Virus record (IMG/VR): IMGVR_UViG_3300022602_003048
Coordinates: 1-64,000 of that record
Reading direction: 5' to 3' (one strand)
DNA: 64,000 nt
From: a virus
Below the pieces are notes generated by a model. That model worked only from the letters and a program-made list of their open reading frames with translations. It did not search any database and had not been told where the DNA came from. Position numbers and translations under genes: made by a program. How positions within the stretch are numbered: the stretch's first letter is position 1; each line of letters starts with the position of its first letter. Below are positions 1,170 through 52,521 of this stretch, one piece after another.

Positions 1170-2478
1170 TATATTTTTCTTGGTAGATCATCGGTTATCT
1201 GATTCTATAAAAAAGCGATTTCCTTTAGCAAAAAAAGCATCTTCGATCGTTGATGCTAAGAATAAATCTATGACTAAGTTTTTTTGGGTCGTAGATCGTG
1301 ATTATAGTCTCTTAGAAGATTTTAAATTTGATTATAAAATACCTGATTGGGATCAGATGTATGTACATGTTTGGAAGACGGTATCTAATGATCATTCTGG
1401 AGTATATTTGATTCCAAAAAAGTATGAAATAACTAATAGAGAAGCTGAATATAGTTTTTTTATTAAAAGAAAAGAAATTGATGTAATCGCAAGTAAGAAA
1501 CAACCTTATGATATTTTTTATATATCAAAACCTAATGATTATATCAACGCACAAACAGAATCTACAACTAAAATGTTTTATGCCATTCTCGATGATGTTG
1601 TAGTTGATCCAAAATTTGATTTTACATATAATGTTCCTAACTGGGATCAAGAATATGTAAATGTATTTTCACAATCGGGAGAAGATACGCACGGTGGTGT
1701 CTATCTTATACCTAAGAATTATAATATTACGAAGAGAGAGGCCGAATATAATTTTTTTATAAACAAAAAAGATATTGACATTATAGCTTCTAAGCCAGGA
1801 TTTGAGATAGTCTTTATCAGCTACGACGAATCAAATGCTGAAGAAAATTGGAATAATTTAAGATACAGGTTTCCATATGCCAAACGTATAGATAAAGTTG
1901 ACGGCATACATAATGCCCATAAAGAAGCTGCCAAGATAACTGATACTAGTATGATATGGGTAGTAGACGGAGATGCGATTGTATTAGATGATTTTAATTT
2001 TGATATAGCTATACCTAAATGGGATAGAAACATTACACATGTTTGTAAAAGTAAAAATCCAATAAATGATTTAGAATATGGATATGGCGGTGTCAAACTA
2101 TTACCTAGAAAATTATTATTAGAGATGAGAACTGACACGGTTGATATGACCACTTCTATATCGAGAGATTTTAAAACTTTAGATATTGTTAGTAATATAA
2201 CAGCATTCAATACAGATACTTTTAATACTTGGAAAAGCGCATTCCGTGAATGTGTTAAATTATCTAGCAAAGTGATAGACGGACAAATAGATGCTGAAAC
2301 ACAAGATAGATTAGAAATCTGGTGTACTAAAGGACAGAATCAAGACTACGGTCATTGGGCATTGCTCGGAGCACAAGCAGGCAGGAAATATGGTTCACAA
2401 AATAAAGATAATAAAGAAATGTTGTTGAAGATAAATGATTGGAAATGGTTACAGGATGAATTCAACAGAAATAACTAA
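1162..2478 (+). CDS. Glycosyltransferase-like protein (GT-A-like) with three tandem homologous segments
   Basis: WVVDGD (DxD) in the third repeat; FISYDE..AEENW and GIHNAHKEAA motifs; internal repeats. Confidence 0.6.
   Translation: MYDIFFLVDHRLSDSIKKRFPLAKKASSIVDAKNKSMTKFFWVVDRDYSLLEDFKFDYKIPDWDQMYVHVWKTVSNDHSGVYLIPKKYEITNREAEYSFFIKRKEIDVIASKKQPYDIFYISKPNDYINAQTESTTKMFYAILDDVVVDPKFDFTYNVPNWDQEYVNVFSQSGEDTHGGVYLIPKNYNITKREAEYNFFINKKDIDIIASKPGFEIVFISYDESNAEENWNNLRYRFPYAKRIDKVDGIHNAHKEAAKITDTSMIWVVDGDAIVLDDFNFDIAIPKWDRNITHVCKSKNPINDLEYGYGGVKLLPRKLLLEMRTDTVDMTTSISRDFKTLDIVSNITAFNTDTFNTWKSAFRECVKLSSKVIDGQIDAETQDRLEIWCTKGQNQDYGHWALLGAQAGRKYGSQNKDNKEMLLKINDWKWLQDEFNRNN
1270..2112 (+). repeat. Three degenerate ~75-aa protein repeats (F.FD/TY..P.WD..Y.HV...GVYLIPK)
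   Basis: FKFDYKIPDWDQMYVHVW..GVYLIPKKYEITNREAEY vs FDFTYNVPNWDQEYVNVF..GVYLIPKNYNITKREAEY vs FNFDIAIPKWDRNITHV..GVKLLPRK; boundaries approximate. Confidence 0.85.
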
Positions 2479-3085
2479 CATTAGACTTGATATAGATCAT
2501 ATTCTTTTCTGGATGGATGCTATCAGAAATAGTGCAGATAAAGATCGATCGTTAGAAAGTTTTTGGAAAGGCCAGATCAAGAGCAAAATATGGTTGATCG
2601 ATAACCTTATAAATTATATATCTCCTATAAACAATAATATTGTTATCCATGGGGGGTGGAATGGTGTATTAGCTAGCTTATTATTCCAGTCATCGATTAA
2701 ATTAGAAAAAATAATTTCAATAGATATAAATCCGGCTTGTAAAGAAATTGCCGAAACAATGAATAAGATAGAAGAGATAACTGGAAGGTTTCGAGCAGTT
2801 ACATCTGATATGGCAGAATACACCTATGATTTTAATCCCGATATAGTGATAAACACTAGTTGTGAACATATCACTCAGGAAACATATGAAATTTGGTTAT
2901 CAAAGGTTCCATTTAATTCTATAATAGTCCTACAAAGCAATGATTATTTTGATCTAGAGGAGCACATACGCTGTGCTAAAAATTTAGAAGAATTTATAGA
3001 TCAGAGTAAAATCAAAATTATTAGATCAGATATTTTACAACTGCCTAAATATAGTAGGTTTATGTTGATAGGATATAAGCAATGA
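2456..3085 (+). CDS. Class I SAM-dependent methyltransferase-like protein
   Basis: IHGGWNG motif I, acidic SIDIN, DIVINTSCEH; paralogue at 42555-43121; start chosen at ATG 2456. Confidence 0.75.
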   Translation: MNSTEITNIRLDIDHILFWMDAIRNSADKDRSLESFWKGQIKSKIWLIDNLINYISPINNNIVIHGGWNGVLASLLFQSSIKLEKIISIDINPACKEIAETMNKIEEITGRFRAVTSDMAEYTYDFNPDIVINTSCEHITQETYEIWLSKVPFNSIIVLQSNDYFDLEEHIRCAKNLEEFIDQSKIKIIRSDILQLPKYSRFMLIGYKQ

Positions 3086-39491: not shown

Positions 39492-42158
39492 TTAGAACTC
39501 AAATAGCTTGTTGAAAGTGTTAGTTTGTTCAGTGCTGACCACGTCCCATTCCAAAACTCCGATGAGATTGTCTAGTTTAGCGTCAATGATGGTAGCTTCC
39601 ATCTCAGCATCATCAAAAGGTAGATCCTTAAACCATTGGGGTAAGCGCAATTCATCTACAGGATACGCTACGCTGTTGAACCCCATTGGATTGTTTTTCA
39701 GCTTACAGACGATGACTTTAGCACCATCGCTGATGCTCATGGCATAATTATCGCTGTACATCTTCTTGAGCGTGTTCCAATTGATGCTTGCCCGAACGTG
39801 ACCAGGCATATTTGCTTTTCCTGCCTTAGCTTCTTTCTTGCTATAGTCAGTAATATTGTTGGCACGTTTAGGGCTTCCCTTCTCCCAACCAGGTCGTCCC
39901 TTAAAGGCAGTGCGGAAGTCAGTGATCATCTCCAGTATCTCTTCTTCCTTATGACCAGTCAGCACGCTTTCTAATACTTCACTAAGGAAGTTCTGTATAA
40001 ATTCTGGAGTATCCGAACGCTTGAGATCCAATCCCATGGCTTTAATCTTACCAGGTTTATCATTATTATCGTAACGCTTGCCTTCTTTATCGTAATAGAG
40101 GACGGCATAGCGTTTCTTAGTGATGAACAGTCCCTTGATAGCCACGATCTCTCGCCCAGCCTTGATCACATCACCTCTGCTCTTTGGGCAATGGAACGCA
40201 TCTAGCATGAACTTAGGGAATGTTCCGTTTACTTCTTCAGCTATCTGATCATAGAGCTGTATGACATTATCCTTAGACCAAGGTATCACACCTTTATCTA
40301 TGTCTTTCTTTAGGGTAGTGTATGCTGAGAAATACACAGAGTCAGTATCGCCATATATGATGCTCTTGCCTATGTGATCATTTACGCCTGTTATCACTTC
40401 GTTCACTTTTCCGGCCATGTGCTTGGCTATGCTCCTACCAGTCAGTGTAGTTGACTGTCCGATGCGTTTATCAAAGAATCGGCATCCTGGATTTAGGATA
40501 GCACCATATAAGCTGTTGAGATTGATCTTCTTTACTAACTGTCGCTTATCCCAGAATTCAGTTTCTATCTTGTTACCGGCGTTTAGTGATTCGCGCATCT
40601 TGGCCTGTAGTTCCTTGCGCTCAGCATACCAACGCTTTAGCAGTCCAGGTATAACCCCCTCAAACTCATAGGTAAAGATAGTACCGTTGGCACTGAGCAT
40701 CCAGGGTTGGTTGCTGTCATAGATCATCTTATAGATCTCTGCACCACTCATCACTACGCTTTCGCCGTTTTCCCAGTCAACAGTTATATCAGTAGCCTTG
40801 TCTTGAGACATGACTATATCGTATTCCAAACAGGCAAACTTACCCTCCCATGCGCTTGCGAAACTCTTTTTATGCACGGTTATCTGTTCGTCTATGTATG
40901 CATCTGTGTAGGTCTGGCGCAGTTGTCCAACAATGGTTTCTGGAGCCATGTTTAGCGCACGGATGGCTGATGGATATAGGCTGTTTAGATCCATTGATCC
41001 AATCCAGTCATGCAATCCTTTTTTTGGATATGCGACATAGGCGCCTGCTGCCTGTGTGTTCTCGCTGTCATCACGTTTTGGACGATTGGGCACTATCAAG
41101 CCACGGCGATGTGCTTCATTGATGATAGCCTGTTCAGTAACAGCGACAGCACCCATGGTAGTCTGTAGCAGAACCGTGTTAGCATGGGCTAGTTCGTTGC
41201 TGAGATCGATGAATTTGAGTTTTTTATCTAATTTATCTAGCAATGCTACGTCTTGCCTGTTGTATTCGATGAACTTTCGGAAGTCGTTATTATATAGGCT
41301 GTCTAGCGTGCCTTCGTATACGGTTTTCTTTTCCCCTATCTCCATTTCGCCGATAGCATCGAGTCGATAGGTGTGTCTTTCTTCATAGGTATATTTGCGA
41401 TACAGTTCTAAGCTATCTAGGTGTACTCTACCTACTAGGTCGTAGGTAATAAGCTGCCGACCATATTTCTCAAATTCACGCTTTTTTGGAAACTCGTTCC
41501 AGAGGCAGAAACGGCGTGTATCTTCTTTGCTCAACACTCGTGCTACGCGATTCACAGTGTAGGGAATATCGTAACCTTCGCTGTTCCAACCACTTAGTAT
41601 GTCTGCATCCTCGATGAGATCTAAGAATGTTTCTAGCATATCTGCTTCGCTGTCAAATATGAAACAGTCGTTGAATTCCTCACACTGTTTCTTTGCTTCT
41701 TCTACAGACAGTCTCTTTGGGGGTACTGCTAGAGTGACTAACCTCTCTAACCACTGCAGATGCACTGTTATGGCAGTGATGCCCATGAACGGATCGCTAG
41801 GATCTGCGAAGCCACGTTCTGGATCAAAGTCTGTCTCGATGTCAAAGAACGCTACGTTCAGCTTCGGAGCATCTAGGTTTAGATAGTTTTCTTCGAGGCA
41901 GCGGAAAGCTGGATTGATATCACTTTCATAAAGGCGTTTGGTTCCGTGTATCTTTAATTCTTTATGGAAATCTTTGAGATTTCGGGCAGTTACTCTACCC
42001 AACTTCTCACCGTAAACACTTTCGTGCTTGCCCTTAGGGTCGGGATAATAAAATATATAACGAGCAGGATATTCTTTATATAATCGTTTGCCGTTTACAC
42101 GTTCAACTACTTTAACAGATTCATCATCTCTCTTATAGAGAGCATCTACATAACTCAT
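39492..42158 (-). CDS. Family B DNA polymerase (gp43-like)
   Basis: FDIET exo I, YN..D exo III, DLNSLYPS, K...NSLYG, YGDTDS, KKRY. Confidence 0.98.
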   Translation of the reverse strand: MSYVDALYKRDDESVKVVERVNGKRLYKEYPARYIFYYPDPKGKHESVYGEKLGRVTARNLKDFHKELKIHGTKRLYESDINPAFRCLEENYLNLDAPKLNVAFFDIETDFDPERGFADPSDPFMGITAITVHLQWLERLVTLAVPPKRLSVEEAKKQCEEFNDCFIFDSEADMLETFLDLIEDADILSGWNSEGYDIPYTVNRVARVLSKEDTRRFCLWNEFPKKREFEKYGRQLITYDLVGRVHLDSLELYRKYTYEERHTYRLDAIGEMEIGEKKTVYEGTLDSLYNNDFRKFIEYNRQDVALLDKLDKKLKFIDLSNELAHANTVLLQTTMGAVAVTEQAIINEAHRRGLIVPNRPKRDDSENTQAAGAYVAYPKKGLHDWIGSMDLNSLYPSAIRALNMAPETIVGQLRQTYTDAYIDEQITVHKKSFASAWEGKFACLEYDIVMSQDKATDITVDWENGESVVMSGAEIYKMIYDSNQPWMLSANGTIFTYEFEGVIPGLLKRWYAERKELQAKMRESLNAGNKIETEFWDKRQLVKKINLNSLYGAILNPGCRFFDKRIGQSTTLTGRSIAKHMAGKVNEVITGVNDHIGKSIIYGDTDSVYFSAYTTLKKDIDKGVIPWSKDNVIQLYDQIAEEVNGTFPKFMLDAFHCPKSRGDVIKAGREIVAIKGLFITKKRYAVLYYDKEGKRYDNNDKPGKIKAMGLDLKRSDTPEFIQNFLSEVLESVLTGHKEEEILEMITDFRTAFKGRPGWEKGSPKRANNITDYSKKEAKAGKANMPGHVRASINWNTLKKMYSDNYAMSISDGAKVIVCKLKNNPMGFNSVAYPVDELRLPQWFKDLPFDDAEMEATIIDAKLDNLIGVLEWDVVSTEQTNTFNKLFEF

Positions 42159-42554: not shown

Positions 42555-43121
42555 TTATGTTAGTCCTATGATCATGTAGCGATCGTATTCTGTTTCTGGA
42601 TCTTCTAGAGTTATAGTCCCCTCAAACATCAATTCACGCAGTGGATAATCTCTCCGGAATTGTTCTAGGCTATCATACTGATTGACCGCACCGAGATCGT
42701 TGTTCCTACCCTGAAGAGCTACTAACGTGTTTTTCGGAATCGCATCAAACCATCCATCGTTTTTCATGTTAGTTGTGCTTGTGTTTATTATCAAGCTCTT
42801 TTTAGTCACTTGCCTGTAGTCTAGGTCGTTCGCATCTTTGAGCATGTCTACGATGCGATCGTGCAGACCTAATTTCTTGGCGAATCGCTTTCCGTCTCTT
42901 AATACTCTAGGATCTGTCTCTACGTTTATTATCTTGTTAAAATCCCAGTGCTTAGATATCAGCATGATGCTGAGATTGCCGTACCAGCTACCCAATATAT
43001 AAATAACATCAAATCTATCACTTATCTTAGTGATTTCTTTTATCAACCAGAGTTTGCTAAACACTAGATCTCGTGTAAAACTACCTTCTAAAGTGTTTGG
43101 ACTGACTTCATTTATCTTCAT
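42555..43121 (-). CDS. Class I methyltransferase-like protein with MKINEV N-tag
   Basis: SKLWL, LGSWYG, INTS, LQG.N, RYMIIG; paralogue of 2456-3085. Confidence 0.75.
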   Translation of the reverse strand: MKINEVSPNTLEGSFTRDLVFSKLWLIKEITKISDRFDVIYILGSWYGNLSIMLISKHWDFNKIINVETDPRVLRDGKRFAKKLGLHDRIVDMLKDANDLDYRQVTKKSLIINTSTTNMKNDGWFDAIPKNTLVALQGRNNDLGAVNQYDSLEQFRRDYPLRELMFEGTITLEDPETEYDRYMIIGLT

Positions 43122-43296
43122 CGTCCCACCGAGTTTCTATATCTTTTACTATGTCTATGTAGCGCCTGAGAGGATTATTTGATTTCAGTCTCTTATCCTT
43201 GGCCAGTGTTTCGAGACCCCGCGCACCCGGACTGACTGGGTCCTTTATCTGTTTCTTGATATCTTCGACTCCTGGAGATCCCTTGATCTTCTTCAT
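43108..43296 (-). CDS. Hypothetical small basic protein
   Basis: ORF fills gap in operon. Confidence 0.5.
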   Translation of the reverse strand: MKKIKGSPGVEDIKKQIKDPVSPGARGLETLAKDKRLKSNNPLRRYIDIVKDIETRWDDEDK

Positions 43297-43297
43297 A

Positions 43298-44056
43298 TTA
43301 GATTCCGTAGGTGCTCTTGACAGCATTGTAGTTGGCTGTAACCTGTGTTTGATTCAATGCTATATTATAGACACGCATCTGATAATAGGTTCCGACGCAC
43401 GCATCCATTGGAGTGCTTGAGGTTCCTGCGTTTGGATGCCTAGATCCAAAATTTAGGCCGGTAGAGGTGCTTCCTGGATTAGCATATAGCGTTTGGCTAG
43501 CAGTCTGCAAACTACCGTTGATGTATAGCTTCAAGCTAGGGGTAGCATCGACGGTAACTATTATCTGTCTTATGTTTCCAGTATTTGCCGAAATGCTGTA
43601 AGAATTTGCAGCAGCTGAACCACCTATGCTAAGCAATGAAGAGCCGCTCCAATATGCGAGATATCCCTTAGAGGCAGTGTAGCTCTCATTGCCCCACAGC
43701 GACGACCAATAGGCTGATGGATTTAAATTTACGATAACTTCTACAGTAAAAGGTACTACTAAATTGTATGTGGTGGCTATCATGGCCATATTAGTAATCT
43801 GAGAAGGACCTAGTATCAATCCGCCGTTATGCGCAGAAGTATATGTAGCAGATCCTGTACCTGTTTTTATTATAGTACCATTATTGCCATAACCGCTAAC
43901 ATCAGTCCAAGAAATTCCTGAACTAGGAGCGTTCAAAAGATTCATGACCAGCCCAGTACTAGTACCGGTCCAGGTATTACCTACCGGTCCTTTGCTAGCT
44001 GAAACAACAGTTGCAATCTTGCTGATAGCAGTAGTTCGGCCTGGCTTACGGAACAT
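43298..44056 (-). CDS. LamG/concanavalin-like domain virion protein
   Basis: WTDVSG.GNNGT, LYING, RVYN.AL...V..NY. Confidence 0.82.
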   Translation of the reverse strand: MFRKPGRTTAISKIATVVSASKGPVGNTWTGTSTGLVMNLLNAPSSGISWTDVSGYGNNGTIIKTGTGSATYTSAHNGGLILGPSQITNMAMIATTYNLVVPFTVEVIVNLNPSAYWSSLWGNESYTASKGYLAYWSGSSLLSIGGSAAANSYSISANTGNIRQIIVTVDATPSLKLYINGSLQTASQTLYANPGSTSTGLNFGSRHPNAGTSSTPMDACVGTYYQMRVYNIALNQTQVTANYNAVKSTYGI

Positions 44057-44057
44057 A

Positions 44058-44351
44058 TCAAGCCAATTCTGTTATGCTGATATAACCACTAGTGGTAACC
44101 TGCAGGAAAGCAATGTAAGTAAAGCCTGTTCCTGTGCCTACGGCTATGAATTCTATCTGACCAGCTGGAATGATCATGCTGCTATTTGTAGCAGTAACAC
44201 TAGATCCGCCTAGGGCTATATAAGTATCTGCTTGCACAGCTACCCTTATGACGCTAGTTGATGTGCCAAATGCAGCTGAAACTTGGCTGCTGCCTGAAGT
44301 AGCAAAGTTCTGCGTAGTGCCTGGTGCGTAGGCGCCTTTTCTTAGTAACAT
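44058..44351 (-). CDS. Small beta-rich structural protein
   Basis: 97 aa, S/T/G/A-rich; GAGG SD. Confidence 0.6.
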   Translation of the reverse strand: MLLRKGAYAPGTTQNFATSGSSQVSAAFGTSTSVIRVAVQADTYIALGGSSVTATNSSMIIPAGQIEFIAVGTGTGFTYIAFLQVTTSGYISITELA

Positions 44352-44361
44352 ATTAGTTTCC

Positions 44362-44583
44362 TCATTTCTTTATGGGACGACAGTCATTGACCATCTTGCC
44401 GCCTTTTTTCTTCAATCCTGCTTTACGATATCCAGACCAGCAGTGCGTGTTTCCGTTATCATCGGCTTTCTCGTTGATACCTTCAGATTTGATAGAGAGA
44501 GAAGATAACCTTCCGGATAGATTCTCTCCGAGACCGTGCTTATGGTTTAGTTCTATCGCTTTTTCAAGCTCAGTTATTTTCAT
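44362..44583 (-). CDS. Small tagged protein (MKITEL) with CWxGY..KGG..VNDC module
   Basis: ATAAATA-N5-ATG; module shared with 44883-46109. Confidence 0.7.
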   Translation of the reverse strand: MKITELEKAIELNHKHGLGENLSGRLSSLSIKSEGINEKADDNGNTHCWSGYRKAGLKKKGGKMVNDCRPIKK

Positions 44584-44878
44584 GCAGATATTTATCTGTT
44601 CGCCTGTGATAGGCTAGATACCATCTGACATATCTGAGTAGTTCGCCGCCATTTGATCTGATCTGTTTTTCGTTATGCTTCTTGATCTTTTTGGCTTTAG
44701 AGCTTATCTCTTTTAGGAATCTAGGATCAGAGCTACTGCGCCACTGGCTAAGGTCCATATATTGTGCTGCTTGGGATTTTAGGTTTGAATATCTAGGCCT
44801 ATTCTCAACGTCTTCCAACAGATAATCCCAGTCGGACCAATCTATCTCAGTCCAACTACTTAAAGTATCGTAGCGCAT
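44570..44878 (-). CDS. Hypothetical protein
   Basis: AGGAG SD. Confidence 0.6.
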   Translation of the reverse strand: MRYDTLSSWTEIDWSDWDYLLEDVENRPRYSNLKSQAAQYMDLSQWRSSSDPRFLKEISSKAKKIKKHNEKQIRSNGGELLRYVRWYLAYHRRTDKYLHENN

Positions 44879-44882
44879 TTGC

Positions 44883-46109
44883 TTACTCCTTATGGTGTTT
44901 TTTCTGTCCAGAGCGCATGTTAGCCATCCAACGGGCTAGTTGTCCTTTGCGACCCTTAGCGTGGCTTGCTTTCTCTAGCTCTGACTTGGTGGCGTGCTTT
45001 GGGATACCGTGCCTAGCACTATCTCCTGCTCGTCCTGGACCTTTGCCATCGGCAAAGTTCTCGTTAGTTGGAGCAGAAACTTTTTTCTTGTATACGTATA
45101 GTTTGTAACCTGAAGCATCATCGCTAAAAATCTTTTTCTGTTGGACTGGATCAGTTACAGCCTTAAAACCCATCTGCTCAAAGAATTTTGCTGCCCTATC
45201 ATATAACTTGATTCTGCTTGGTTCGTTTGATTTTGCACCCATGACAATTACTTCGGTTTTAGGATGTCTTGCAATAAAGTGGTTCAAGCAATAGGCAACA
45301 CCATTGAATATTTTAAAAACAGTATCTCTTTCAGTACCAGTTGCAGCATGGGTATCAGGTCTACTCTGCGTTTTATTTTCAAATGCCAATATATAATAAT
45401 TTTCATTATATTCTTTAAATGTGACTTCGATTTTGGTTTTACCAACGGTGAAATCATAATCAGAACCGTAACTATCTTCATACACATCAAAGTTCTCTGG
45501 CGCTTTGTTTACGTCGATAAATTCTCCGATCACTTCTTTTTTAGCTATCGCTATAGCTGCTTGCTGTGCGGCATTAGCTGCTTCATCTATGTCTTCATTT
45601 GGTACACAGTTGTTGACACGGATACCGCCCTTGATCTTAGTGCCTTCCTTGTGCTTGCCAGTCCAGCATTTTGGATCTAAACGCTGTTTCGTCTCAGCGA
45701 TATAAGCCTCAGCATATACTATGAGATCGCGCATCTCTTCGATGCTCTCGCAGTGCCACTTGCGCAGGCTCTTGTTGATCCTTGAGTTTGGATCATGTGC
45801 AGTCTTGGCGCCAGTGCGATGTTTCTTCATGCCACGCATGCGAGCACAGAAGCTCTTGCGACGCTTGCTAGCCTTGCTGCCCTTCTTGAGCTTGCTAGGC
45901 TTTGTAGTGACTGCTGTCTGTAAATGGCTACCTGGATGGCTGCGGCGATAGCTAGCAACGCCCTTCTTGTTGAGGCCGCCGTTCTTGTTCTTGCCTTTCT
46001 TGGTCTGCCAAGCTTCTGCTTCGTCTATCGGATCGTTGCAGCCGCAATCACATTCGGCATTACCTATGCATTCTCTGAGATTTTCTGATAAGATTTCTCT
46101 GAATTTCAT
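44883..46109 (-). CDS. Modular tagged protein (MKFREI), putative internal head polyprotein
   Basis: Basic and other modules separated by IDE/IAE/IGE/TNE sites. Confidence 0.75.
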   Translation of the reverse strand: MKFREILSENLRECIGNAECDCGCNDPIDEAEAWQTKKGKNKNGGLNKKGVASYRRSHPGSHLQTAVTTKPSKLKKGSKASKRRKSFCARMRGMKKHRTGAKTAHDPNSRINKSLRKWHCESIEEMRDLIVYAEAYIAETKQRLDPKCWTGKHKEGTKIKGGIRVNNCVPNEDIDEAANAAQQAAIAIAKKEVIGEFIDVNKAPENFDVYEDSYGSDYDFTVGKTKIEVTFKEYNENYYILAFENKTQSRPDTHAATGTERDTVFKIFNGVAYCLNHFIARHPKTEVIVMGAKSNEPSRIKLYDRAAKFFEQMGFKAVTDPVQQKKIFSDDASGYKLYVYKKKVSAPTNENFADGKGPGRAGDSARHGIPKHATKSELEKASHAKGRKGQLARWMANMRSGQKKHHKE

Positions 46110-46112
46110 AGC

Positions 46113-46592
46113 TTACCTCTTGACATTCTTCCACATCGCTGCGGCAGCTACTTTTTCGCCTTTTTCTTTAGAGCCATACTTCTTGGCAGCTTTGTCTGCT
46201 ATTGCTTTGAATCCTTTACCCTTCTTGCCAATATCTTTACCTGCATGGGCTTTCTTAGCTACTGCTGATTTCTTCTTCTTGCTGAGACCCGCAGACGGCT
46301 TAGATTCTATCAGTTGATTCTCAAGATTACGATGTAGTGCTTCCATGTATTCCTCGCCTACTGGTTCGTTCGTACCGTATTGTTTTTCATACATCATGTA
46401 ATCATGCACTGTGTTTAGATAATCTGCTGCTTTAGTGATCTTGGCAGCTACCCAGCCCTCTAGATTTTCGCCTGGTTCTATCATCTTGAATAGTTCCATA
46501 GCGTTCTTTATAGCATTGTAAAGCTCACCTCTCGCCATGCTAGCTTCATGATCGTGTGTTCCGTAATCAGTTGGTTCGTGCATATCGTGCAT
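46113..46592 (-). CDS. Modular protein with helical domain and Lys-rich C-terminal module
   Basis: WVAAKITKAADYL domain; LIE site then basic module. Confidence 0.7.
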   Translation of the reverse strand: MHDMHEPTDYGTHDHEASMARGELYNAIKNAMELFKMIEPGENLEGWVAAKITKAADYLNTVHDYMMYEKQYGTNEPVGEEYMEALHRNLENQLIESKPSAGLSKKKKSAVAKKAHAGKDIGKKGKGFKAIADKAAKKYGSKEKGEKVAAAAMWKNVKR

Positions 46593-46601
46593 GGCAATAT
46601 C

Positions 46602-46859
46602 CTATCTCTTTATGGATGGGCCGCCGAATAGGCTAGTGCCCTTCATATCTAATGCGTTTACAGCAGTACCCATCTTGGTCTTTGGTTGTACTGCTTTTGG
46701 GGGTTTCGGTGCTTTGGTTCCGCTCTTGCCAGGGGATCCTGTATAGCTCTTGTTTCCTCGGGCTTTTCCTATAGCTACGTTTGGATTGACGACAGTAGCT
46801 ATGCTGCCTGCTGAAGTAGCACCTGCTGAAGCATACTCAAATAACTCTTTTATCTTCAT
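46602..46859 (-). CDS. Small tagged protein (MKIKELFE)
   Basis: ATAAATA-N5-ATG. Confidence 0.7.
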   Translation of the reverse strand: MKIKELFEYASAGATSAGSIATVVNPNVAIGKARGNKSYTGSPGKSGTKAPKPPKAVQPKTKMGTAVNALDMKGTSLFGGPSIKR

Positions 46860-46890
46860 AGAAATATTTATCTCTGAATCAGATAAGAAG

Positions 46891-46915
46891 GTGCGGGAGA
46901 TTGGATCTCCCGCAC
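46891..46915 (-). terminator. Intrinsic terminator of the nuclease gene
   Basis: Perfect 11-bp stem GTGCGGGAGAT/ATCTCCCGCAC, 3-nt loop, CTTCTT tail on minus strand. Confidence 0.7.
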
Positions 46916-46938
46916 TGATATATTATTAAAGATCGATA

Positions 46939-47775
46939 TTAGTCTTCGGTGCCTGGTGCGCCCTTGCAAGCTGCCTTCTTAGCATCGGCAGTCTTCTTTA
47001 GATCCACTGGCCAAACTGCTGCGGCTGGCTTGGTCTTGTCAGTGCCTGGGGGGACAGGGAAACTGATACCTGTAGCCTGTTCGATGCTAGCGATGCTAAC
47101 CAAATGTGCTGGTAGATCGATAGGTTGTGAAGCTACCTGTGGGAAAGTGAAAGCCAGCACCTGTTTGGTATTGTCGTCGATCACGATCTTGTAGAGGAAG
47201 TCTGGAACTACGACATTGTCTGCACCGATAGTCTTGCTCTTGCCCACTGTGTAGATGTTACCTGCATATACTGTGTAGTTATGACCATTTCCATAAGTCC
47301 ATGCACGCACGTTGCTTTCTAGAGCTTTCCAGATACCGCGGTTTAGGTTTGGTAACTGTGGACTCATGTTTGACATTAGGAATGATTCGTATTCAACCTG
47401 TGTATCCCAGCTCATGTCACCGTCTGGAGCAAGATGTCCTTGGTCATATCCTGAACCAGCGTAATCAGATGGTTTAGAACCGTTAGCACCAAGGATAGTA
47501 TCAGCTACGAATGCATTTGTGCGAGGAACACATCCGATAGCGTGTTGCGGGGTGAGCGTATATGCTACCCAAGCTGGTATCTTAGCTGCATTGTCGTGCT
47601 GTAGGGCATACCCAGTGTGGCATTCCACAACAGTGTTTGCTTTATTTAGAACCGGCGCACCATATGGTACCTGTGCTGCGCAAGCTGTGATCGGTTGGTT
47701 GGGTTTTTGATCCCAAGCAAATACTGCACCTGTGAATCCTAGGAACAATAATGCTGATATTACTATTTTCTTCAT
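46939..47775 (-). CDS. Secreted DNA/RNA non-specific endonuclease (NucA/EndoG family)
   Basis: Signal peptide ending AVFA; DQGHL, SNMSPQ..LNRGIW..LE. Confidence 0.92.
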   Translation of the reverse strand: MKKIVISALLFLGFTGAVFAWDQKPNQPITACAAQVPYGAPVLNKANTVVECHTGYALQHDNAAKIPAWVAYTLTPQHAIGCVPRTNAFVADTILGANGSKPSDYAGSGYDQGHLAPDGDMSWDTQVEYESFLMSNMSPQLPNLNRGIWKALESNVRAWTYGNGHNYTVYAGNIYTVGKSKTIGADNVVVPDFLYKIVIDDNTKQVLAFTFPQVASQPIDLPAHLVSIASIEQATGISFPVPPGTDKTKPAAAVWPVDLKKTADAKKAACKGAPGTED

Positions 47776-47789
47776 GCTATCTCCTTTTG

Positions 47790-47805
47790 CATAAGTATAC
47801 TTATG
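47790..47805. promoter_or_regulatory. Perfect 16-bp palindrome with two divergent ATAAGTA boxes
   Basis: CATAAGTATACTTATG; last 3 nt are the ATG of 47803. Confidence 0.7.
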
Positions 47806-48273
47806 ACTATTAAAGTAACAGATATTTATTCCAGAATCAAGAATAATCTATCTCTGGAAAATGCAAAAAAAGCACTATGGTTTTCAGCTGGTATCATATT
47901 CCTAGGTATAGCTTATCTAGGGACGTTTGTTCCTGGATTACCTTGGTCAACTCCGAGCCTGTTAGCTGCATGGTGCTTTAGCAAAAGCAGCAAGCGTTTT
48001 CACGACTACATGCTCAACCATAGACTTTTTGGACCGTTCATAAAGAACTGGAGCAGTGGGAGGGTATTTCCTAAGATCGCTAAGTGGCTCATGTTCTTGA
48101 GCATGGATGGTAGTTTAGTGATCATGTGGTTTACAACACATAATGTGAAACTAGTTGTAGGTATGGCAGTGTTTTTTGCTTTGATATTGATTTGGGCAAG
48201 TCGTTATCCAGGATCTAAGGAAGAAGCTGATCGCAGGATAGCAGCCGGCGAAAAATTAGGTTGGTTTAAGTAG
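47803..48273 (+). CDS. YbaN/DUF454-family membrane protein
   Basis: G..G.F.PGLP.TP..LLAA.CF.KSS.RFH..L.H..FGP.I..W. Confidence 0.85.
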   Translation: MTIKVTDIYSRIKNNLSLENAKKALWFSAGIIFLGIAYLGTFVPGLPWSTPSLLAAWCFSKSSKRFHDYMLNHRLFGPFIKNWSSGRVFPKIAKWLMFLSMDGSLVIMWFTTHNVKLVVGMAVFFALILIWASRYPGSKEEADRRIAAGEKLGWFK

Positions 48274-48792
48274 ACTCTTCTTTAATGCCTGTATAGCATC
48301 GCCTACGTGGCTGTCTTCGTATTTTATTCCTATACCACCAGCAGCTTCCCAAGCACGTATGTTCTTACCAAAATCGTCAATCAGTATGTTAGGAGTGCCA
48401 TCTGCTTGGGTGGCATGTGCTGCCTTGTTATGTGTGATAATCACTTCTTTTGGAGGGAACGCATGCAGATGCTTCTTGACCCACTCTCTCTTCTGTGGCT
48501 CGCTGTTTGGATCGCCTGCTAAGGGTGTGCTGCATATGTTGTAAGCACCTGCGAATTTCTTCACTGCTCCCAATAGCTTTCCTGCTCCTTGCAAGACCGG
48601 TAAGTCGATCCAAAATGTGGGATGATCTCTCACTAGCTGTAGCTTTGCTTCTGGATTCTCTATGTCCTTGTAGTGAGATTTACCGTCTAGCGCAGCCCAT
48701 GCTCCAAAGAAATCAGCTAATACTCCATCCATGTCTACGTAGACTTCTGGTTTCTTTTCTCTGCCTTCGCTGTCTACTTCGAATATCTTCAT
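48256..48792 (-). CDS. HAD-family 5'(3')-deoxyribonucleotidase with MKIFEV tag
   Basis: DMDGVLADF, K..W, LIDD...N..W..AGG.GI. Confidence 0.88.
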   Translation of the reverse strand: MKIFEVDSEGREKKPEVYVDMDGVLADFFGAWAALDGKSHYKDIENPEAKLQLVRDHPTFWIDLPVLQGAGKLLGAVKKFAGAYNICSTPLAGDPNSEPQKREWVKKHLHAFPPKEVIITHNKAAHATQADGTPNILIDDFGKNIRAWEAAGGIGIKYEDSHVGDAIQALKKSLLKPT

Positions 48793-49614
48793 CTATCCTA
48801 CCTCTTGGTATTCGATCCACTCGTCTGGAGTGACTCCTTGTTTCTTTTTAAATGCATCATGCAGCTGCTTTGGTGTTATATCGTTATCTTTGCTTATCTT
48901 TTTCATCATGCTATCGATCTCAAAATAGGTATGATCGCGCTTGTTAGTAGCCAGCAGGTCATCTTCTAGCCTGCTGACTGCTGTGTCTAGAGATTTCTCT
49001 AGCTTCTTCTTGGCCTTCTTATCAGCTTCAAAGATATTGCACCATCCTTTTGGATCTATGTTTCCTATGACAGCTGTGCATTGATTTGGTTTCTTCCACA
49101 TAGTGCATAGTTCGCAGTAGTTGTCCTTCTTAGGATGATCTTGGTACTTTACAGCACCCTTTGTCTTCCGAGGTTTGGCTACTTCAAACAGTTTTTTGTT
49201 GAGTTCTAAACCTTCTCTCAGCGGTTTGATATCAAACGCTTCGGGATGTGCTGCATCAAACTTGCGCATGATGATACCTGCGACCGCATGTGCTTCGTTT
49301 TCTTGTGGACTTCCATCCTCGCCGCTACGATGATTGATCTCGCCCTTGAGATTCTGTTTATAATGTACTAGCTCATGGGCTAGTGTGCGCATGATGTCTA
49401 GTATGTGTCTGTTTCCTATCTCTACTAATACTTCATTTGTGTTGTTAGTAAAACTACCAAAGCTGTGGTGCTTTCGGTGATGTTCACCGTCTATCGCCCA
49501 TTTGATAGGAGGTAAGTGATCTAGTTCTAGCATTTCCTTACACAGTATAAGGAAATCTCTGAATAAGTCAATCAGCTGATTTGGATTTGGGCTGTTTACT
49601 TCATTTATCTTCAT
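48793..49614 (-). CDS. Tagged (MKINEV) HExxH metallopeptidase fused to a HiPIP-like Cys4 module
   Basis: RTLAHELVH..Q...E.EA; YQD.P....CELC......C..V.G.I...GWC. Confidence 0.75.
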   Translation of the reverse strand: MKINEVNSPNPNQLIDLFRDFLILCKEMLELDHLPPIKWAIDGEHHRKHHSFGSFTNNTNEVLVEIGNRHILDIMRTLAHELVHYKQNLKGEINHRSGEDGSPQENEAHAVAGIIMRKFDAAHPEAFDIKPLREGLELNKKLFEVAKPRKTKGAVKYQDHPKKDNYCELCTMWKKPNQCTAVIGNIDPKGWCNIFEADKKAKKKLEKSLDTAVSRLEDDLLATNKRDHTYFEIDSMMKKISKDNDITPKQLHDAFKKKQGVTPDEWIEYQEVG

Positions 49615-49829
49615 TTCGTGCGCCCCCTAAACCCAACCGGGCGTTCCTGTGTTAGATAAGGCCTGCTAAACCACAGCTGGAACCATTCTGGAGTTCCTGG
49701 ACGTATGTTATTAGTCTTCATCAGATTGGCTTTTTCCATGCCAGTGACAGAGATATTGCTACCTTCATATGGTGTCATGCCCTTGTATTCTTGTATCCCT
49801 GCCAGTTTCCTAAGTTCATCTAGATTCAT
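49611..49829 (-). CDS. Small protein (MNLDELRKLAGI)
   Basis: Coupled ORF. Confidence 0.7.
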   Translation of the reverse strand: MNLDELRKLAGIQEYKGMTPYEGSNISVTGMEKANLMKTNNIRPGTPEWFQLWFSRPYLTQERPVGFRGRTK

Positions 49830-51322
49830 AATTTGAACGCCTTTAGATTTTTTTTGATAGTCCTTGGACCTACGTCTGCTGTGCTGTTTTGCTTTGTTAC
49901 AATTCCAACTCCTGCAGCTTCTTCGTCGACATTATAATCTGTTAGATTAATTGGTCTTATTCTAAAATGAGGTTGAAAATAATATCCTATATTTTTATTC
50001 AGATTTTTTAATACTTCTTGTTTTGCTAAGTTATATGCTTTATCTTTATCTTTAAGTTTTTTATAAAAAGTATAAAAGCTACTATTTTCTTTTATTTGCC
50101 TTTCAATAAACTTTTCGAACATAGGAAGAGTTAATCCAAATTCTTCAATATTATGTTTTTTGTAAATTGCTTCAATTGATAGTAATTGACTATCCTCAGC
50201 AACCGCAACATTTGGGAATTCATAAGAAGCATATTTCTTGTGATAATCAGGATTACTGCTACCACCGAAACGCTTTGCTATAGCGTTATATGCCCTAAGT
50301 CGACCTAAATCTTTCTTAGCAGCTTGGAATGAGATATTCTTGATCTCAGGATGGCGTTTCATATGATAGATGACGATGGCCTTTACTGTTCCTAGGATTT
50401 TTGCTGCGTCAAAAGGATGCTCACCAGTCATCTCTTCAGAATCATCGCTGGCCCTGTAAAATGTCACATGGCCTGTGCCTGTTCTTTCCTCATAAAATAT
50501 AGAGACATTGATTTTAGATCCCTTACTAGGGGTAAAACTATAGATGGAGACATTATCGCCATCATAACCTTTATACTTGAACTTATATGCAGAATCTAAT
50601 GTTTCATCTATGTCTTCTGCTGTGCCTCTGGAAGCTCTGAATATATCCTGTGTCGAAGCATAGTTACCCCATACATCGGCAGCATTGCTGCCTTTCTTTC
50701 CAGCAGCACTTAGTGGGCTCTGGTTATCACCTGCTTCTTTGACTTTCTTGCCCTTCTTGGCAGCAGCATCTGCATAAGGAAGGAGATATTCTGCTACTAG
50801 ATCAAAGAATGGCTTGCCTGCTATCTTGGTTTCGCTTGAAACTCCGGCAGCATCGCTAAATGCTTTGCGATCACCCTTTATCACAGCGTCACGCAGGGCT
50901 GTAGCACTGCTCAAACGAGGAGTAGGTGTCTGTTCTATGTGTGGGAAATCGTAATATCCGTGTGGACCTTCTTTGCCGTTATACTGCATAATGGTCTTAG
51001 TGACCCAATCTTCATCAGTTAGGCACTTGAGATTTACTTTTCCGTGCTTTTCGTAAACCATGCTAGCCAAGGTAAGCCAACTGATTTCAGCTATTATATG
51101 TTTGGCTACGTCGGGCCATATAGCTTCCATGGCCTGTACTTTTACTTCATAAGGTAATGGATCCTTTGGGCCAACTGTGCTCTTGTTGGTACCTACGTAC
51201 CAAACGGGGCTCTTAGCAGCCAATTCCCAAGCGGCCCTATGTCCCTTGTGTGGTGGATTGAATCTGCCGAAGATTATAGCGACTTCGTTTCCAGTTGACT
51301 CAAAAAATTCTCTCAATAACAT
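49826..51322 (-). CDS. Tagged (MLLREFFE) HIGH-motif nucleotidyltransferase with extra modules
   Basis: FGRFNPPHKGH, SAT.LR; further modules after VKE/IDE/VAE/VDE sites. Confidence 0.8.
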   Translation of the reverse strand: MLLREFFESTGNEVAIIFGRFNPPHKGHRAAWELAAKSPVWYVGTNKSTVGPKDPLPYEVKVQAMEAIWPDVAKHIIAEISWLTLASMVYEKHGKVNLKCLTDEDWVTKTIMQYNGKEGPHGYYDFPHIEQTPTPRLSSATALRDAVIKGDRKAFSDAAGVSSETKIAGKPFFDLVAEYLLPYADAAAKKGKKVKEAGDNQSPLSAAGKKGSNAADVWGNYASTQDIFRASRGTAEDIDETLDSAYKFKYKGYDGDNVSIYSFTPSKGSKINVSIFYEERTGTGHVTFYRASDDSEEMTGEHPFDAAKILGTVKAIVIYHMKRHPEIKNISFQAAKKDLGRLRAYNAIAKRFGGSSNPDYHKKYASYEFPNVAVAEDSQLLSIEAIYKKHNIEEFGLTLPMFEKFIERQIKENSSFYTFYKKLKDKDKAYNLAKQEVLKNLNKNIGYYFQPHFRIRPINLTDYNVDEEAAGVGIVTKQNSTADVGPRTIKKNLKAFKL

Positions 51323-51330
51323 ATCTATTC

Positions 51331-52488
51331 CTAGGTTGGCGTCCAACGCTTTCGCGGCACGAATTTCACGTTGCCAAACTGCTTGTTCTGGTCAGCATAA
51401 CGCACACGCCCTTCGCCCTTAGTATCCCATATATCTCCCTGTGGTCCGTCCACTTGGTCGATGATATCGTCCTTCATCTTCTGTATCTCTTTGACCAGAG
51501 TGAACATGGCTTCCAGTGCTTGAGGATGCGCCACTGCTATCTCTTTTATCTTGGCCTGCTTTGGTCCGCTTACCTTGCTCTTAGAAAGCCACTCGTTGAA
51601 ACTTTTTGCTCCTAGATTGTCTAGCTGTTTGGCCTTAGCAGTCTGGTTTACATAGGTATAGATTATATTCTTGAGATCACTCATTCCTGCACGGTCTTCT
51701 AGGAAACCGTTTATCTGTGCGCCGTGCTTCCTGACATATGCTTCTACTTGGTCTATCGACTGTGTGTTGATCTTTACTGGTTTAGTGTTGTATACTGGTC
51801 CTAGCACTATGAGATTTTGATTGCTGTTGAACTTGCTGAAATCGCTGATTGGTTTCTGATCGCTATCTGCCATACCAAATTCTGGAAAGAACGCATGCCC
51901 TACGACCATCACCTGTGCATTAGCTATCCTCTTACCTAGCTCGCTGTTAGCACGGACATGGTAACCTGTACCACTCTTGGGGTTAGGAAAGAAGTTATAG
52001 ACTCCTTGTGCGTCTAACTGCGGACGCTTTAAGAACAGTCCGTCTGCGTAGACGAACCCAACAAAATCCTTAGGTGTTCCCTTGTTGAATATAGGATATA
52101 GGCTAGCGAATTCATCAGCAAACTGATCCCTAGCTTCTTTCTCTTCTGGAGTCTTTGGTGATCCGCTCTTGTTAGCGATGAAATCTTTTAGATCTTCCGG
52201 ATTGTCTGTCTTAGCACCTCGGCTCCAACCGTTGTGTCCTGCCAGTATCAGAGGACCGTTTTTAACCTCACGTCCCCAATATATCTGCGGATTACCGTCC
52301 CACTTCATGCGCAGGCTACCAGCACCTTCTTGGGTGCTCATCTCTTTTATGTGTGCTAGTGCTTCGCCAGCACCTTCGGTACCATGGAAGAAGACTAAGT
52401 CTTCGAGATGATTGAACGCACGACCTAGCTTCTTAGCAGGTGCAGCTTCCTCAGCTTCTCTGATACCAAACAGTTCATTCAACAACAT
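51331..52488 (-). CDS. Tagged (MLLNELF) protein with ligase-like KWDG motif
   Basis: HLEDL, KWDG.P, GEG.V, KFV.R resemble covalent nucleotidyltransferase motifs I, IV, V. Confidence 0.6.
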   Translation of the reverse strand: MLLNELFGIREAEEAAPAKKLGRAFNHLEDLVFFHGTEGAGEALAHIKEMSTQEGAGSLRMKWDGNPQIYWGREVKNGPLILAGHNGWSRGAKTDNPEDLKDFIANKSGSPKTPEEKEARDQFADEFASLYPIFNKGTPKDFVGFVYADGLFLKRPQLDAQGVYNFFPNPKSGTGYHVRANSELGKRIANAQVMVVGHAFFPEFGMADSDQKPISDFSKFNSNQNLIVLGPVYNTKPVKINTQSIDQVEAYVRKHGAQINGFLEDRAGMSDLKNIIYTYVNQTAKAKQLDNLGAKSFNEWLSKSKVSGPKQAKIKEIAVAHPQALEAMFTLVKEIQKMKDDIIDQVDGPQGDIWDTKGEGRVRYADQNKQFGNVKFVPRKRWTPT

Positions 52489-52491
52489 TAC

Positions 52492-52521
52492 TGATAAACT
52501 TCCTTATTGGAATATTTATCA
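52492..52521 (-). promoter_or_regulatory. Hairpin overlapping a late promoter and the SD
   Basis: TGATAAAtaTTCC-aataa-GGAAgTTTATCA; ATAAATA in the 5' arm, AAGGA at the loop/3' arm. Confidence 0.65.

Follow-up and report, generated by a model that had tools for sequence, protein, structure and literature searches.

Nine minus-strand genes at positions 42555 to 52488 of the IMG/VR virus record IMGVR_UViG_3300022602_003048 encode proteins that open with one short peptide, M-[K/L/N]-hydrophobic-x-E-hydrophobic. The shared N-terminus is likely to be a capsid-targeting propeptide of the kind known from bacteriophage T4, removed by a protease and placed here on new cargo, and the nine proteins are probably carried in the virus particle of this phage. 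The mechanism is already known, while the cargo set is new. The set, the breadth it has among uncultured aquatic phages and its link to a recurrent NMNAT-like enzyme of cyanophage virions appear not to have been previously described in the searchable literature. The window analysed comprises the leading 64 kb of a contig of 93.5 kb with a completeness rating of ~24%. The family-B DNA polymerase encoded at 39492-42158 on the minus strand shares ~50% identity with its counterparts in the jumbo phages Phosso and Atu_ph07 and ~44% with those of Rak2-like coliphages, and the contig is thus regarded as part of the genome of an uncultured, T4-related jumbo myovirus.

An earlier sequence-only reading had listed these N-termini, and all nine were found as it described them, both in the open reading frame (ORF) listing and in a separate gene call of our own. 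The genes are the following:

51331-52488, minus strand: lig385, a DUF6267, KxDG ligase-like enzyme; tag MLLNELFGIRE, then a linker and the invariant LGRAFNHLEDL.
49826-51322, minus strand: NT, a HIGH-motif cytidylyl-/adenylyltransferase-like protein (residues ~9-180) with a C-terminal extension; tag MLLREFFES before the GRFNPPHKGH core.
49611-49829, minus strand: orf72b, 72 residues; start MNLDEL, with IQE at residues 12-14.
48793-49614, minus strand: pep273; tag MKINEV, HExxH domain, HiPIP-like module and helical tail.
48256-48792, minus strand: HAD178, an NT5C-type 5'(3')-deoxyribonucleotidase; tag MKIFEVDSE and a linker before the DMDGV catalytic motif, which lies at offset 19.
46602-46859, minus strand: orf85, a small basic protein; tag MKIKELFE, then YASAGATSAGSIATV, a copy of the capsid-protein maturation junction.
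44883-46109, minus strand: orf408; tag MKFREILSE, DUF6321, a CW..G..K.KGG..V..C module, DUF6934 and a basic tail.
44362-44583, minus strand: orf73; tag MKITELEKAIE and a CWSGY...KKKGG...NDC module.
42555-43121, minus strand: MTase188, with a class-I S-adenosylmethionine (SAM) methyltransferase fold; flexible N-terminal tag MKINEVSPNT.

The tag of NT lies at an ATG eight codons within a TTG-started ORF, and NT homologues that have both the tag and the common mature region begin at such a tag. Written strictly as M[KNLRQ][ILFVM]x[ED][ILVFM], the pattern is found in 8 of the 14 called minus-strand ORFs of the cluster, or in 9 of 15 when orf73 is counted, a gene which has PHROG matches yet was displaced by an antisense ORF in the greedy gene call. 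Over the rest of the contig it occurs in 1 of 95 ORFs, and there solely at an alternative start (Fisher p 7e-8). As a control, the residues after internal methionines fit the pattern in 0.2-0.4% of cases. Each of the nine proteins also carries a hydrophobic-x-Glu site at residues 3-5 (INE, ITE, FRE, IKE, IFE, INE, LDE, LRE and LNE), which is a fit, at the sequence level, to the L/I-x-E sites cut by gp21, and second sites of this form follow in the tagged proteins (LSE-9, LFE-8, FFE-8, IRE-11, AIE-11, TLE-12 and IQE-14).

The 70 bases upstream of the tagged starts are unrelated among the genes. Within the tags synonymous codons vary (AAG/AAA, GAA/GAG), and the hydrophobic position is coded by ATA, TTC or CTA. 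Because the upstream DNA is unshared and synonymous codons differ, the conserved object is the peptide, with selection acting at the protein level, and a DNA-level repeat or cassette was rejected on the same grounds. MTase188 and pep273 are identical over their first 17 nucleotides (ATGAAGATAAATGAAGT), which may reflect chance or be the trace of a recent tag transfer.

The T4 capsid targeting sequence (CTS) was reportedly the subject of Mullaney and Black 1996 and is reviewed in PMC9026906 and PMC5694885. In T4, whose N-termini were taken directly from NC_000866, gp24 starts with MAKINELLRE, Alt with MELITELFDE, the internal proteins (IP) IPII and IPIII with MKTYQEFIAEA and IPI with MKTFKEF. 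Alt loses six residues by a cut at ITE-6, gp24 and the internal proteins lose propeptides of 10-20 residues that are termed capsid targeting sequences, and all these cuts are made by gp21 after Glu (PMC5694885, PMC9026906). The window's MKINEV, MKITEL and MLLNELF fit the T4 propeptide pattern, as do MKINELLTE and MRxxEFLxEA in related contigs. With Ala-2 left out, the gp24 propeptide is matched by MKINELLTE at 8 of 9 positions.

The resemblance to the T4 CTS extends to its place at the extreme N-terminus, its length of 5-20 residues, its order of features (Met-basic-(x)-hydrophobic-x-Glu-hydrophobic, later followed by hydrophobic-x-Glu), a cargo of small basic proteins plus an enzyme (Alt in T4), late-type promoters and the presence of Peptidase_S77 in the lineage. 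The two systems differ in cargo, which here comprises a SAM methyltransferase, an NT5C-type HAD protein, a HIGH nucleotidyltransferase, a DUF6267 ligase-like protein, an HExxH/HiPIP protein and DUF6321 mosaics. Furthermore, the nine tagged genes here lie within 10 kb beside the DNA polymerase gene, many of their tags fall one residue short of the T4 IP tag, and they are known from sequence alone. Head-internal ejection proteins are likewise processed after Glu by a gp21-related protease in the phiKZ-like giant phages (SPN3US, phiKZ, 201phi2-1), which belong to another lineage and whose propeptides, in contrast, are usually longer than 100 residues, with S/A/G-x-E as the cleavage motif (PMC5694885).

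Four related genomes were reached via lig385 at 60-72% identity; one of them, G001 (383 kb), is rated 100% complete. All four encode Peptidase_S77, which in G001 lies at 167044-167670. The head module of the relatives runs in the order portal, a protein of 78-82 residues starting M[IL]LRELFY in the gp67 slot, an acidic protein, the protease, a scaffold protein starting MLDALKQLFE and the capsid protein. The last of these reads ...RKYLSE/SATAGATSAGNVATLNRVILPVIRR (a slash marks the junction, which is also given as YLSE/SATAGATSAG and ...YLSE/SATAGATSAGNVATL) and aligns there with the T4 gp23 site ...FLTE/AEIGG, upstream of MGMVRR. The orf85 protein of the window reads MKIKELFE/YASAGATSAGSIATV, with the tag directly before a copy of the mature capsid N-terminus; a match to phrog_17311 covers its residues 1-23. 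The copied junction is a more direct link between the tags and the head protease's substrate rule than is the motif by itself. The junction E/TATAGATSAG recurs inside small basic proteins of the relatives. Small Lys-rich tagged proteins among these (L004, L009 and L023) contain an internal copy, E/TATAGATSAGN, and by analogy with T4 gp67 and gp68 they are probably cut into peptides.

Alignments and structural models both place the tag outside the conserved folds. Among 18 aligned lig385 orthologues, 17 are tagged and one is untagged; the first ~20 columns vary in sequence and, through indels, in length while keeping M-R-x-x-E-F, so that tag plus linker measure 11-21 residues, and the alignment is near-invariant from LGRAFNHLEDL on. 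The AlphaFold models of lig385 and MTase188 are confident overall, with a predicted local distance difference test (pLDDT) of 87 and 91. In the lig385 model, residues 1-23 have a pLDDT <50, and in the MTase188 model, residues 1-12 are coil and residues 1-4 have a pLDDT <50. The Pfam domains of HAD178 and lig385 begin after the tag. In HAD homologues the DMDGV motif stands mostly at offset 15-20 if the protein is tagged; among truly untagged forms, the most frequent one (four homologues) has it at offset 10, and the untagged proteins are shorter by the length of the tag. In these models and alignments, then, the tag is a disordered add-on that is gained and lost on conserved enzyme cores. The contrast drawn in the earlier reading with a paralogous methyltransferase holds as well: the gene at 2435-3085 is 26% identical to MTase188 from residue 42 on (E 1e-11), and its 41-residue N-terminus is unrelated and untagged.

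Among metagenome homologues the strict pattern opens 48 of 120 for MTase188, 81 of 120 for pep273 and 74 of 120 for HAD178, figures that are minimal since many of the non-matching proteins are tag variants or have miscalled starts. Under a relaxed pattern the numbers are 99 of 120 (82%) for pep273 and 80 of 120 for the HAD protein. Tag-like starts predominate at the N-termini of the methyltransferase family, and pep273 homologues of many domain architectures are for the most part still headed by the tag. With the first 12 residues masked, ~50 unrelated mature families were counted as tagged in the vicinity of the lig385 locus across 46 related contigs.

Tagged relatives of one cluster protein are known from virions. 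The N-terminal domain of NT is homologous to the cyanophage protein annotated as 'cytitidyltransferase', with matches to S-SCSM1 ORF91 (E 5e-9), S-SZBM1 ORF140 (E 6e-9) and P-SSM2 (E 6e-12). CsCl-purified virions were found to contain S-SZBM1 ORF140, described as 'one enzyme' among 30 proteins (PMC9146016), S-SCSM1 ORF91 together with its neighbours 89, 90, 92 and 93 (PMC9602691), and S-CREM2 ORF154 together with 155, 156 and 160 (PMC10665884). The cyanophage proteins begin with MRFRQFIIEA (S-SZBM1 ORF140), MKSFLQFLKEA (S-SCSM1 ORF91), MKSFSQFLTE (P-SSM2) and MKNFHQFITEA (S-SRM01), all of them similar to the T4 internal proteins. Among the three virion-positive phages the tag was read in two, S-SZBM1 and S-SCSM1, the S-CREM2 sequence not being among those read. 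Text searches of the three proteomic papers show no mention of an N-terminal signal or CTS, and a literature search on capsid targeting and cyanophages returned nothing relevant.

As in the window, these cyanophage cytidylyltransferase/NMNAT-like proteins are tagged, lie beside a DUF6267 ligase-like gene and follow late-type ATAAATA boxes, which also head cyanophage operons; the ligase-like neighbour, however, is untagged in the cyanophages and tagged in this phage. In RaK2 the homologue of NT consists of a single untagged domain of 178 residues. The named virion proteins of RaK2, reported to come from two other gene clusters, do not include it, and this serves as a weak negative control. The RsoM2USA homologue of the methyltransferase, ORF347, is not among ten virion gel bands, and Atu_ph07, for which a proteome of PEG-purified virions lists 112 extra proteins, is absent among the matches to lig385, pep273 and MTase188. 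Within the structural module of S-SZBM1, the 105-residue ORF191 (L079:27312-27629, minus strand) begins with MKSFKSFLSES, which is T4-IP-like and fits the looser pattern only; it is a candidate internal protein and is absent from the published virion list.

Several observations weigh against a capsid address. The sequence-only reading had named a genome-wide enrichment of the motif at the N-termini of late genes as a check; in the complete relative G001, the strict pattern occurs in 13 of 440 ORFs (3%), no better than the ~4% of ORFs in the 70 kb of T4 examined (the looser pattern matches ~17% of T4 ORFs). T4 proteins that fit the pattern and are not packaged include lysozyme e (MNIFEMLRIDE), UvsY, gp30.3 and Cd.1. 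Therefore, the six-residue motif alone is no proof of packaging and is unusable as a sole classifier. In the 77 kb of S-SZBM1 that were scanned, the strict pattern marks the virion protein ORF140 and also ORF161, which is not a virion protein, and several of the virion-detected S-SCSM1 neighbours are without the canonical tag. No tagged counterpart of MTase188, HAD178 or orf72b was found in the 46 related loci. The tagged cluster adjoins the DNA polymerase gene, and the cyanophage homologues sit inside the replication module. Moreover, no head gene, prohead protease included, was found in the 93.5-kb contig, so that the protease of the source phage is inferred from the relatives. The same T4 proteins and the background frequency in G001 speak for regarding the motif as a common amphipathic start of an N-terminal helix that has no sorting role and is clustered here through shared ancestry or module shuffling in a mosaic gene pool; the cluster proteins do share shuffled modules (DUF6321, CW..G and the HExxH domain). 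We nevertheless consider this explanation improbable. Unrelated folds (methyltransferase, HAD, HIGH nucleotidyltransferase and KxDG ligase-like) follow the tag, which in two models is disordered and outside the fold, unlike the helix of T4 lysozyme. Its length with the linker varies over an invariant core, and the strict form is kept in 40-68% of the homologues of three families versus a background of 3-4%. Furthermore, orf85 copies the capsid maturation junction, and tagged homologues are found in virions.

Another alternative is that translation initiation selects the N-terminal codons, favouring A/T-rich, unstructured sequence with Lys as codon 2, chiefly in tightly coupled or near-leaderless late genes. 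MKINE is built of A-rich codons, only 4-5 nt separate the boxes at 44595 and 46871 from the ATG, which may leave the mRNAs nearly leaderless, and several tagged genes have no clear Shine-Dalgarno sequence. What is conserved, however, is the class of amino acid and not the bases (ATA, TTC, CTA and TTG at position 3; GTC, CTT, ATC, TTA, TTT and CTG at position 6), homologues use Arg (AGA/CGT) at position 2, and, one alternative start excepted, the motif is missing from the other 95 ORFs of the contig, large late structural genes included; such a cause is very unlikely. Scarcely more can be said for a recognition or leader sequence that serves the phage's own modifying enzymes and not the capsid. 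The window does contain a 22-kb island of radical-SAM and 2-oxoglutarate-dependent (2OG) oxygenase genes (1-22294), but co-occurrence cannot separate the two readings since several radical-SAM enzymes are found in the genome labelled G000 and in each of the four relatives, and positional linkage is lacking: the radical-SAM genes of G001 occupy 220-236 and 359-366 kb, and the tagged genes are elsewhere. In addition, 5-12 residues are short for a leader, the tag sits on enzymes of 180-500 residues, and T4 has a like tag with a proven capsid role. It is conceivable, finally, that the tags route proteins to the prohead core as transient assembly or scaffold factors which are degraded or expelled at maturation, like T4 gp22, gp67 and gp68. 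The internal capsid-junction copies in the relatives' small basic proteins are as expected if these are cut into peptides, and orf408 has many hydrophobic-x-Glu sites between its modules, so that the idea keeps some room for the small basic and mosaic proteins. For the set as a whole we give it little credence, given that a folded NT homologue persists in mature cyanophage virions and that T4 Alt and the internal proteins are tagged globular proteins which are retained.

The capsid-targeting propeptide thus remains the preferred explanation. The claim of a portable address label on unrelated enzymes, made in the earlier reading, is well supported by comparison with the T4 propeptides, the protease of the relatives, the orf85 junction, the disordered tags and the virion homologues in cyanophages; for this phage itself, we infer that the nine proteins are packaged and cleaved, are ejected and act early. 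In the proposed mechanism, the tagged proteins would be made late, and the tag of 5-12 residues (M-[K/R/L]-hydrophobic-x-E-hydrophobic, often with a second hydrophobic-x-E) would bind the scaffolding core of the assembling prohead. A T4-type prohead protease (Peptidase_S77, the gp21 homologue) would then cut after Glu, leaving the mature protein, whether an enzyme or a small basic protein, in the head with the DNA, to be ejected with it and to act early. The cargo might serve in nucleic-acid end repair, in nucleotide or NAD-related chemistry, in methylation or in counter-defence, the last being suggested by analogy with T4 IPI* and Alt.

Should the tag prove a genuine capsid address, a simple sequence rule would suffice to list what T4-related phages bring into the cell, a class of proteins that is nearly invisible in uncultured aquatic phages. 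The rule would also account for the recurrence of cytidylyltransferase/NMNAT-like enzymes in cyanophage virion proteomes, and ligase-like, nucleotidyltransferase, nucleotidase and methyltransferase activities may then work in the first seconds of infection. For phage engineering, the tag could be a compact packaging handle beyond T4 and E. coli. A broader view, which we put forward tentatively and rate at somewhat less than an even chance, is that one address label, common to the T4 superfamily (coliphage T4, cyanomyoviruses and lake jumbo phages), marks a large, fast-shuffling set of pre-made injected enzymes, with nucleotidyl-transfer enzymes acting before phage expression. That set would comprise the NMNAT-like nucleotidyltransferase, the DUF6267 ligase-like protein, the HAD nucleotidase, the SAM methyltransferase, zincin/HiPIP mosaics and small basic proteins. 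Were this so, the injected proteome of uncultured phages would become predictable from metagenomes, and the nucleotidyl-transfer enzymes could repair cut RNA or DNA or restore nucleotide cofactors after host defence.

The functional labels of the earlier reading fared unevenly. The methyltransferase fold is confirmed, HAD178 matches NT5C and NT matches cytidyltransferase families, while 'peptidase' reflects an HExxH motif only and 'ligase-like' reflects an invariant KWDG motif and modest structural matches. In lig385, K62-W-D64-G65 (KWDG) is invariant in the orthologue alignment, and the top structural matches from VIA-align are all ligases or capping enzymes, with a modest Z of 5.2-6.2 and a root-mean-square deviation of 4.3-5.9 Å. 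Foldseek against the PDB gave no identification for this protein (E >= 0.06), and a PDB sequence search gave no match; family searches gave no family match for orf72b.

For pep273, Pfam yields no peptidase family. Residues 155-196, between the HExxH domain and the helical tail, are HiPIP-like (PDB PioC 6xyv, E 0.0011; Pfam HIPIP, E 0.046), and an iron-sulfur module is odd in a probable virion cargo protein. The HExxH domain of ~130 residues (48793-49200, minus strand) is fused in homologues (P0139-P0237) to NT5C, CTP_transf_like, DUF6321, chitinase plus LysM, and dCMP-deaminase. These partners are of the same enzyme types as the separate tagged genes here and recall the shuffling of polyvalent proteins, which Iyer, Burroughs, Anand, de Souza and Aravind reportedly described in 2017 from phages and conjugative elements. 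Shuffled enzymatic modules, including a zincin-like domain, and a proposed entry into the host with the DNA are common to both systems. They differ in that the modules here are mostly separate small genes, each with its own tag, versus one giant protein. The polyvalent-protein work is cited in PMC7824862.

The remaining features of the cluster are its late-type boxes and its untagged genes:

52513-52519, minus strand: late-type box ATAAATA (GATAAATAT), heading the run lig385-NT-orf72b-pep273-HAD178.
47803-48273, plus strand: DUF454 membrane protein, divergent and untagged, not cargo.
46939-47775, minus strand: Endonuclease_NS, not cargo; signal peptide (secreted), no tag, own late-type box at 47823-47829.
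46865-46871, minus strand: ATAAATA late-type box, 4-5 nt before the orf85 ATG.
46113-46592, minus strand: orf159, untagged, with a Lys-rich C-terminus; in the same run as orf85, a possible internal protein of uncertain membership.
44589-44595, minus strand: ATAAATA late-type box, 5 nt before the orf73 ATG.

The description of the genes as late-box operons in the earlier reading is borne out in form: four runs of genes with a common direction each begin behind a GATAAATAT box on the minus strand (at 52519, 47829, 46871 and 44595). Further along the contig, this box is also found ahead of large fibre- or baseplate-like genes, at 73779 and 74564. With the boxes ending just 4-5 nt before the ATG of orf73 and orf85 (44584-44596 and 46860-46872, minus strand), the T4 late-promoter spacing would make these mRNAs leaderless or nearly so. 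The untagged Endonuclease_NS and DUF454 genes lie mid-cluster among the tagged ones, and orf159 has a weak match to a neighbour gene in HTVC008M. A CWxGxxKxGxKxKGGxxVxxC module is common to orf73, orf408 and the virion-detected S-SZBM1 ORF139 (L080:10989-12362), with 50% identity over 28 residues.

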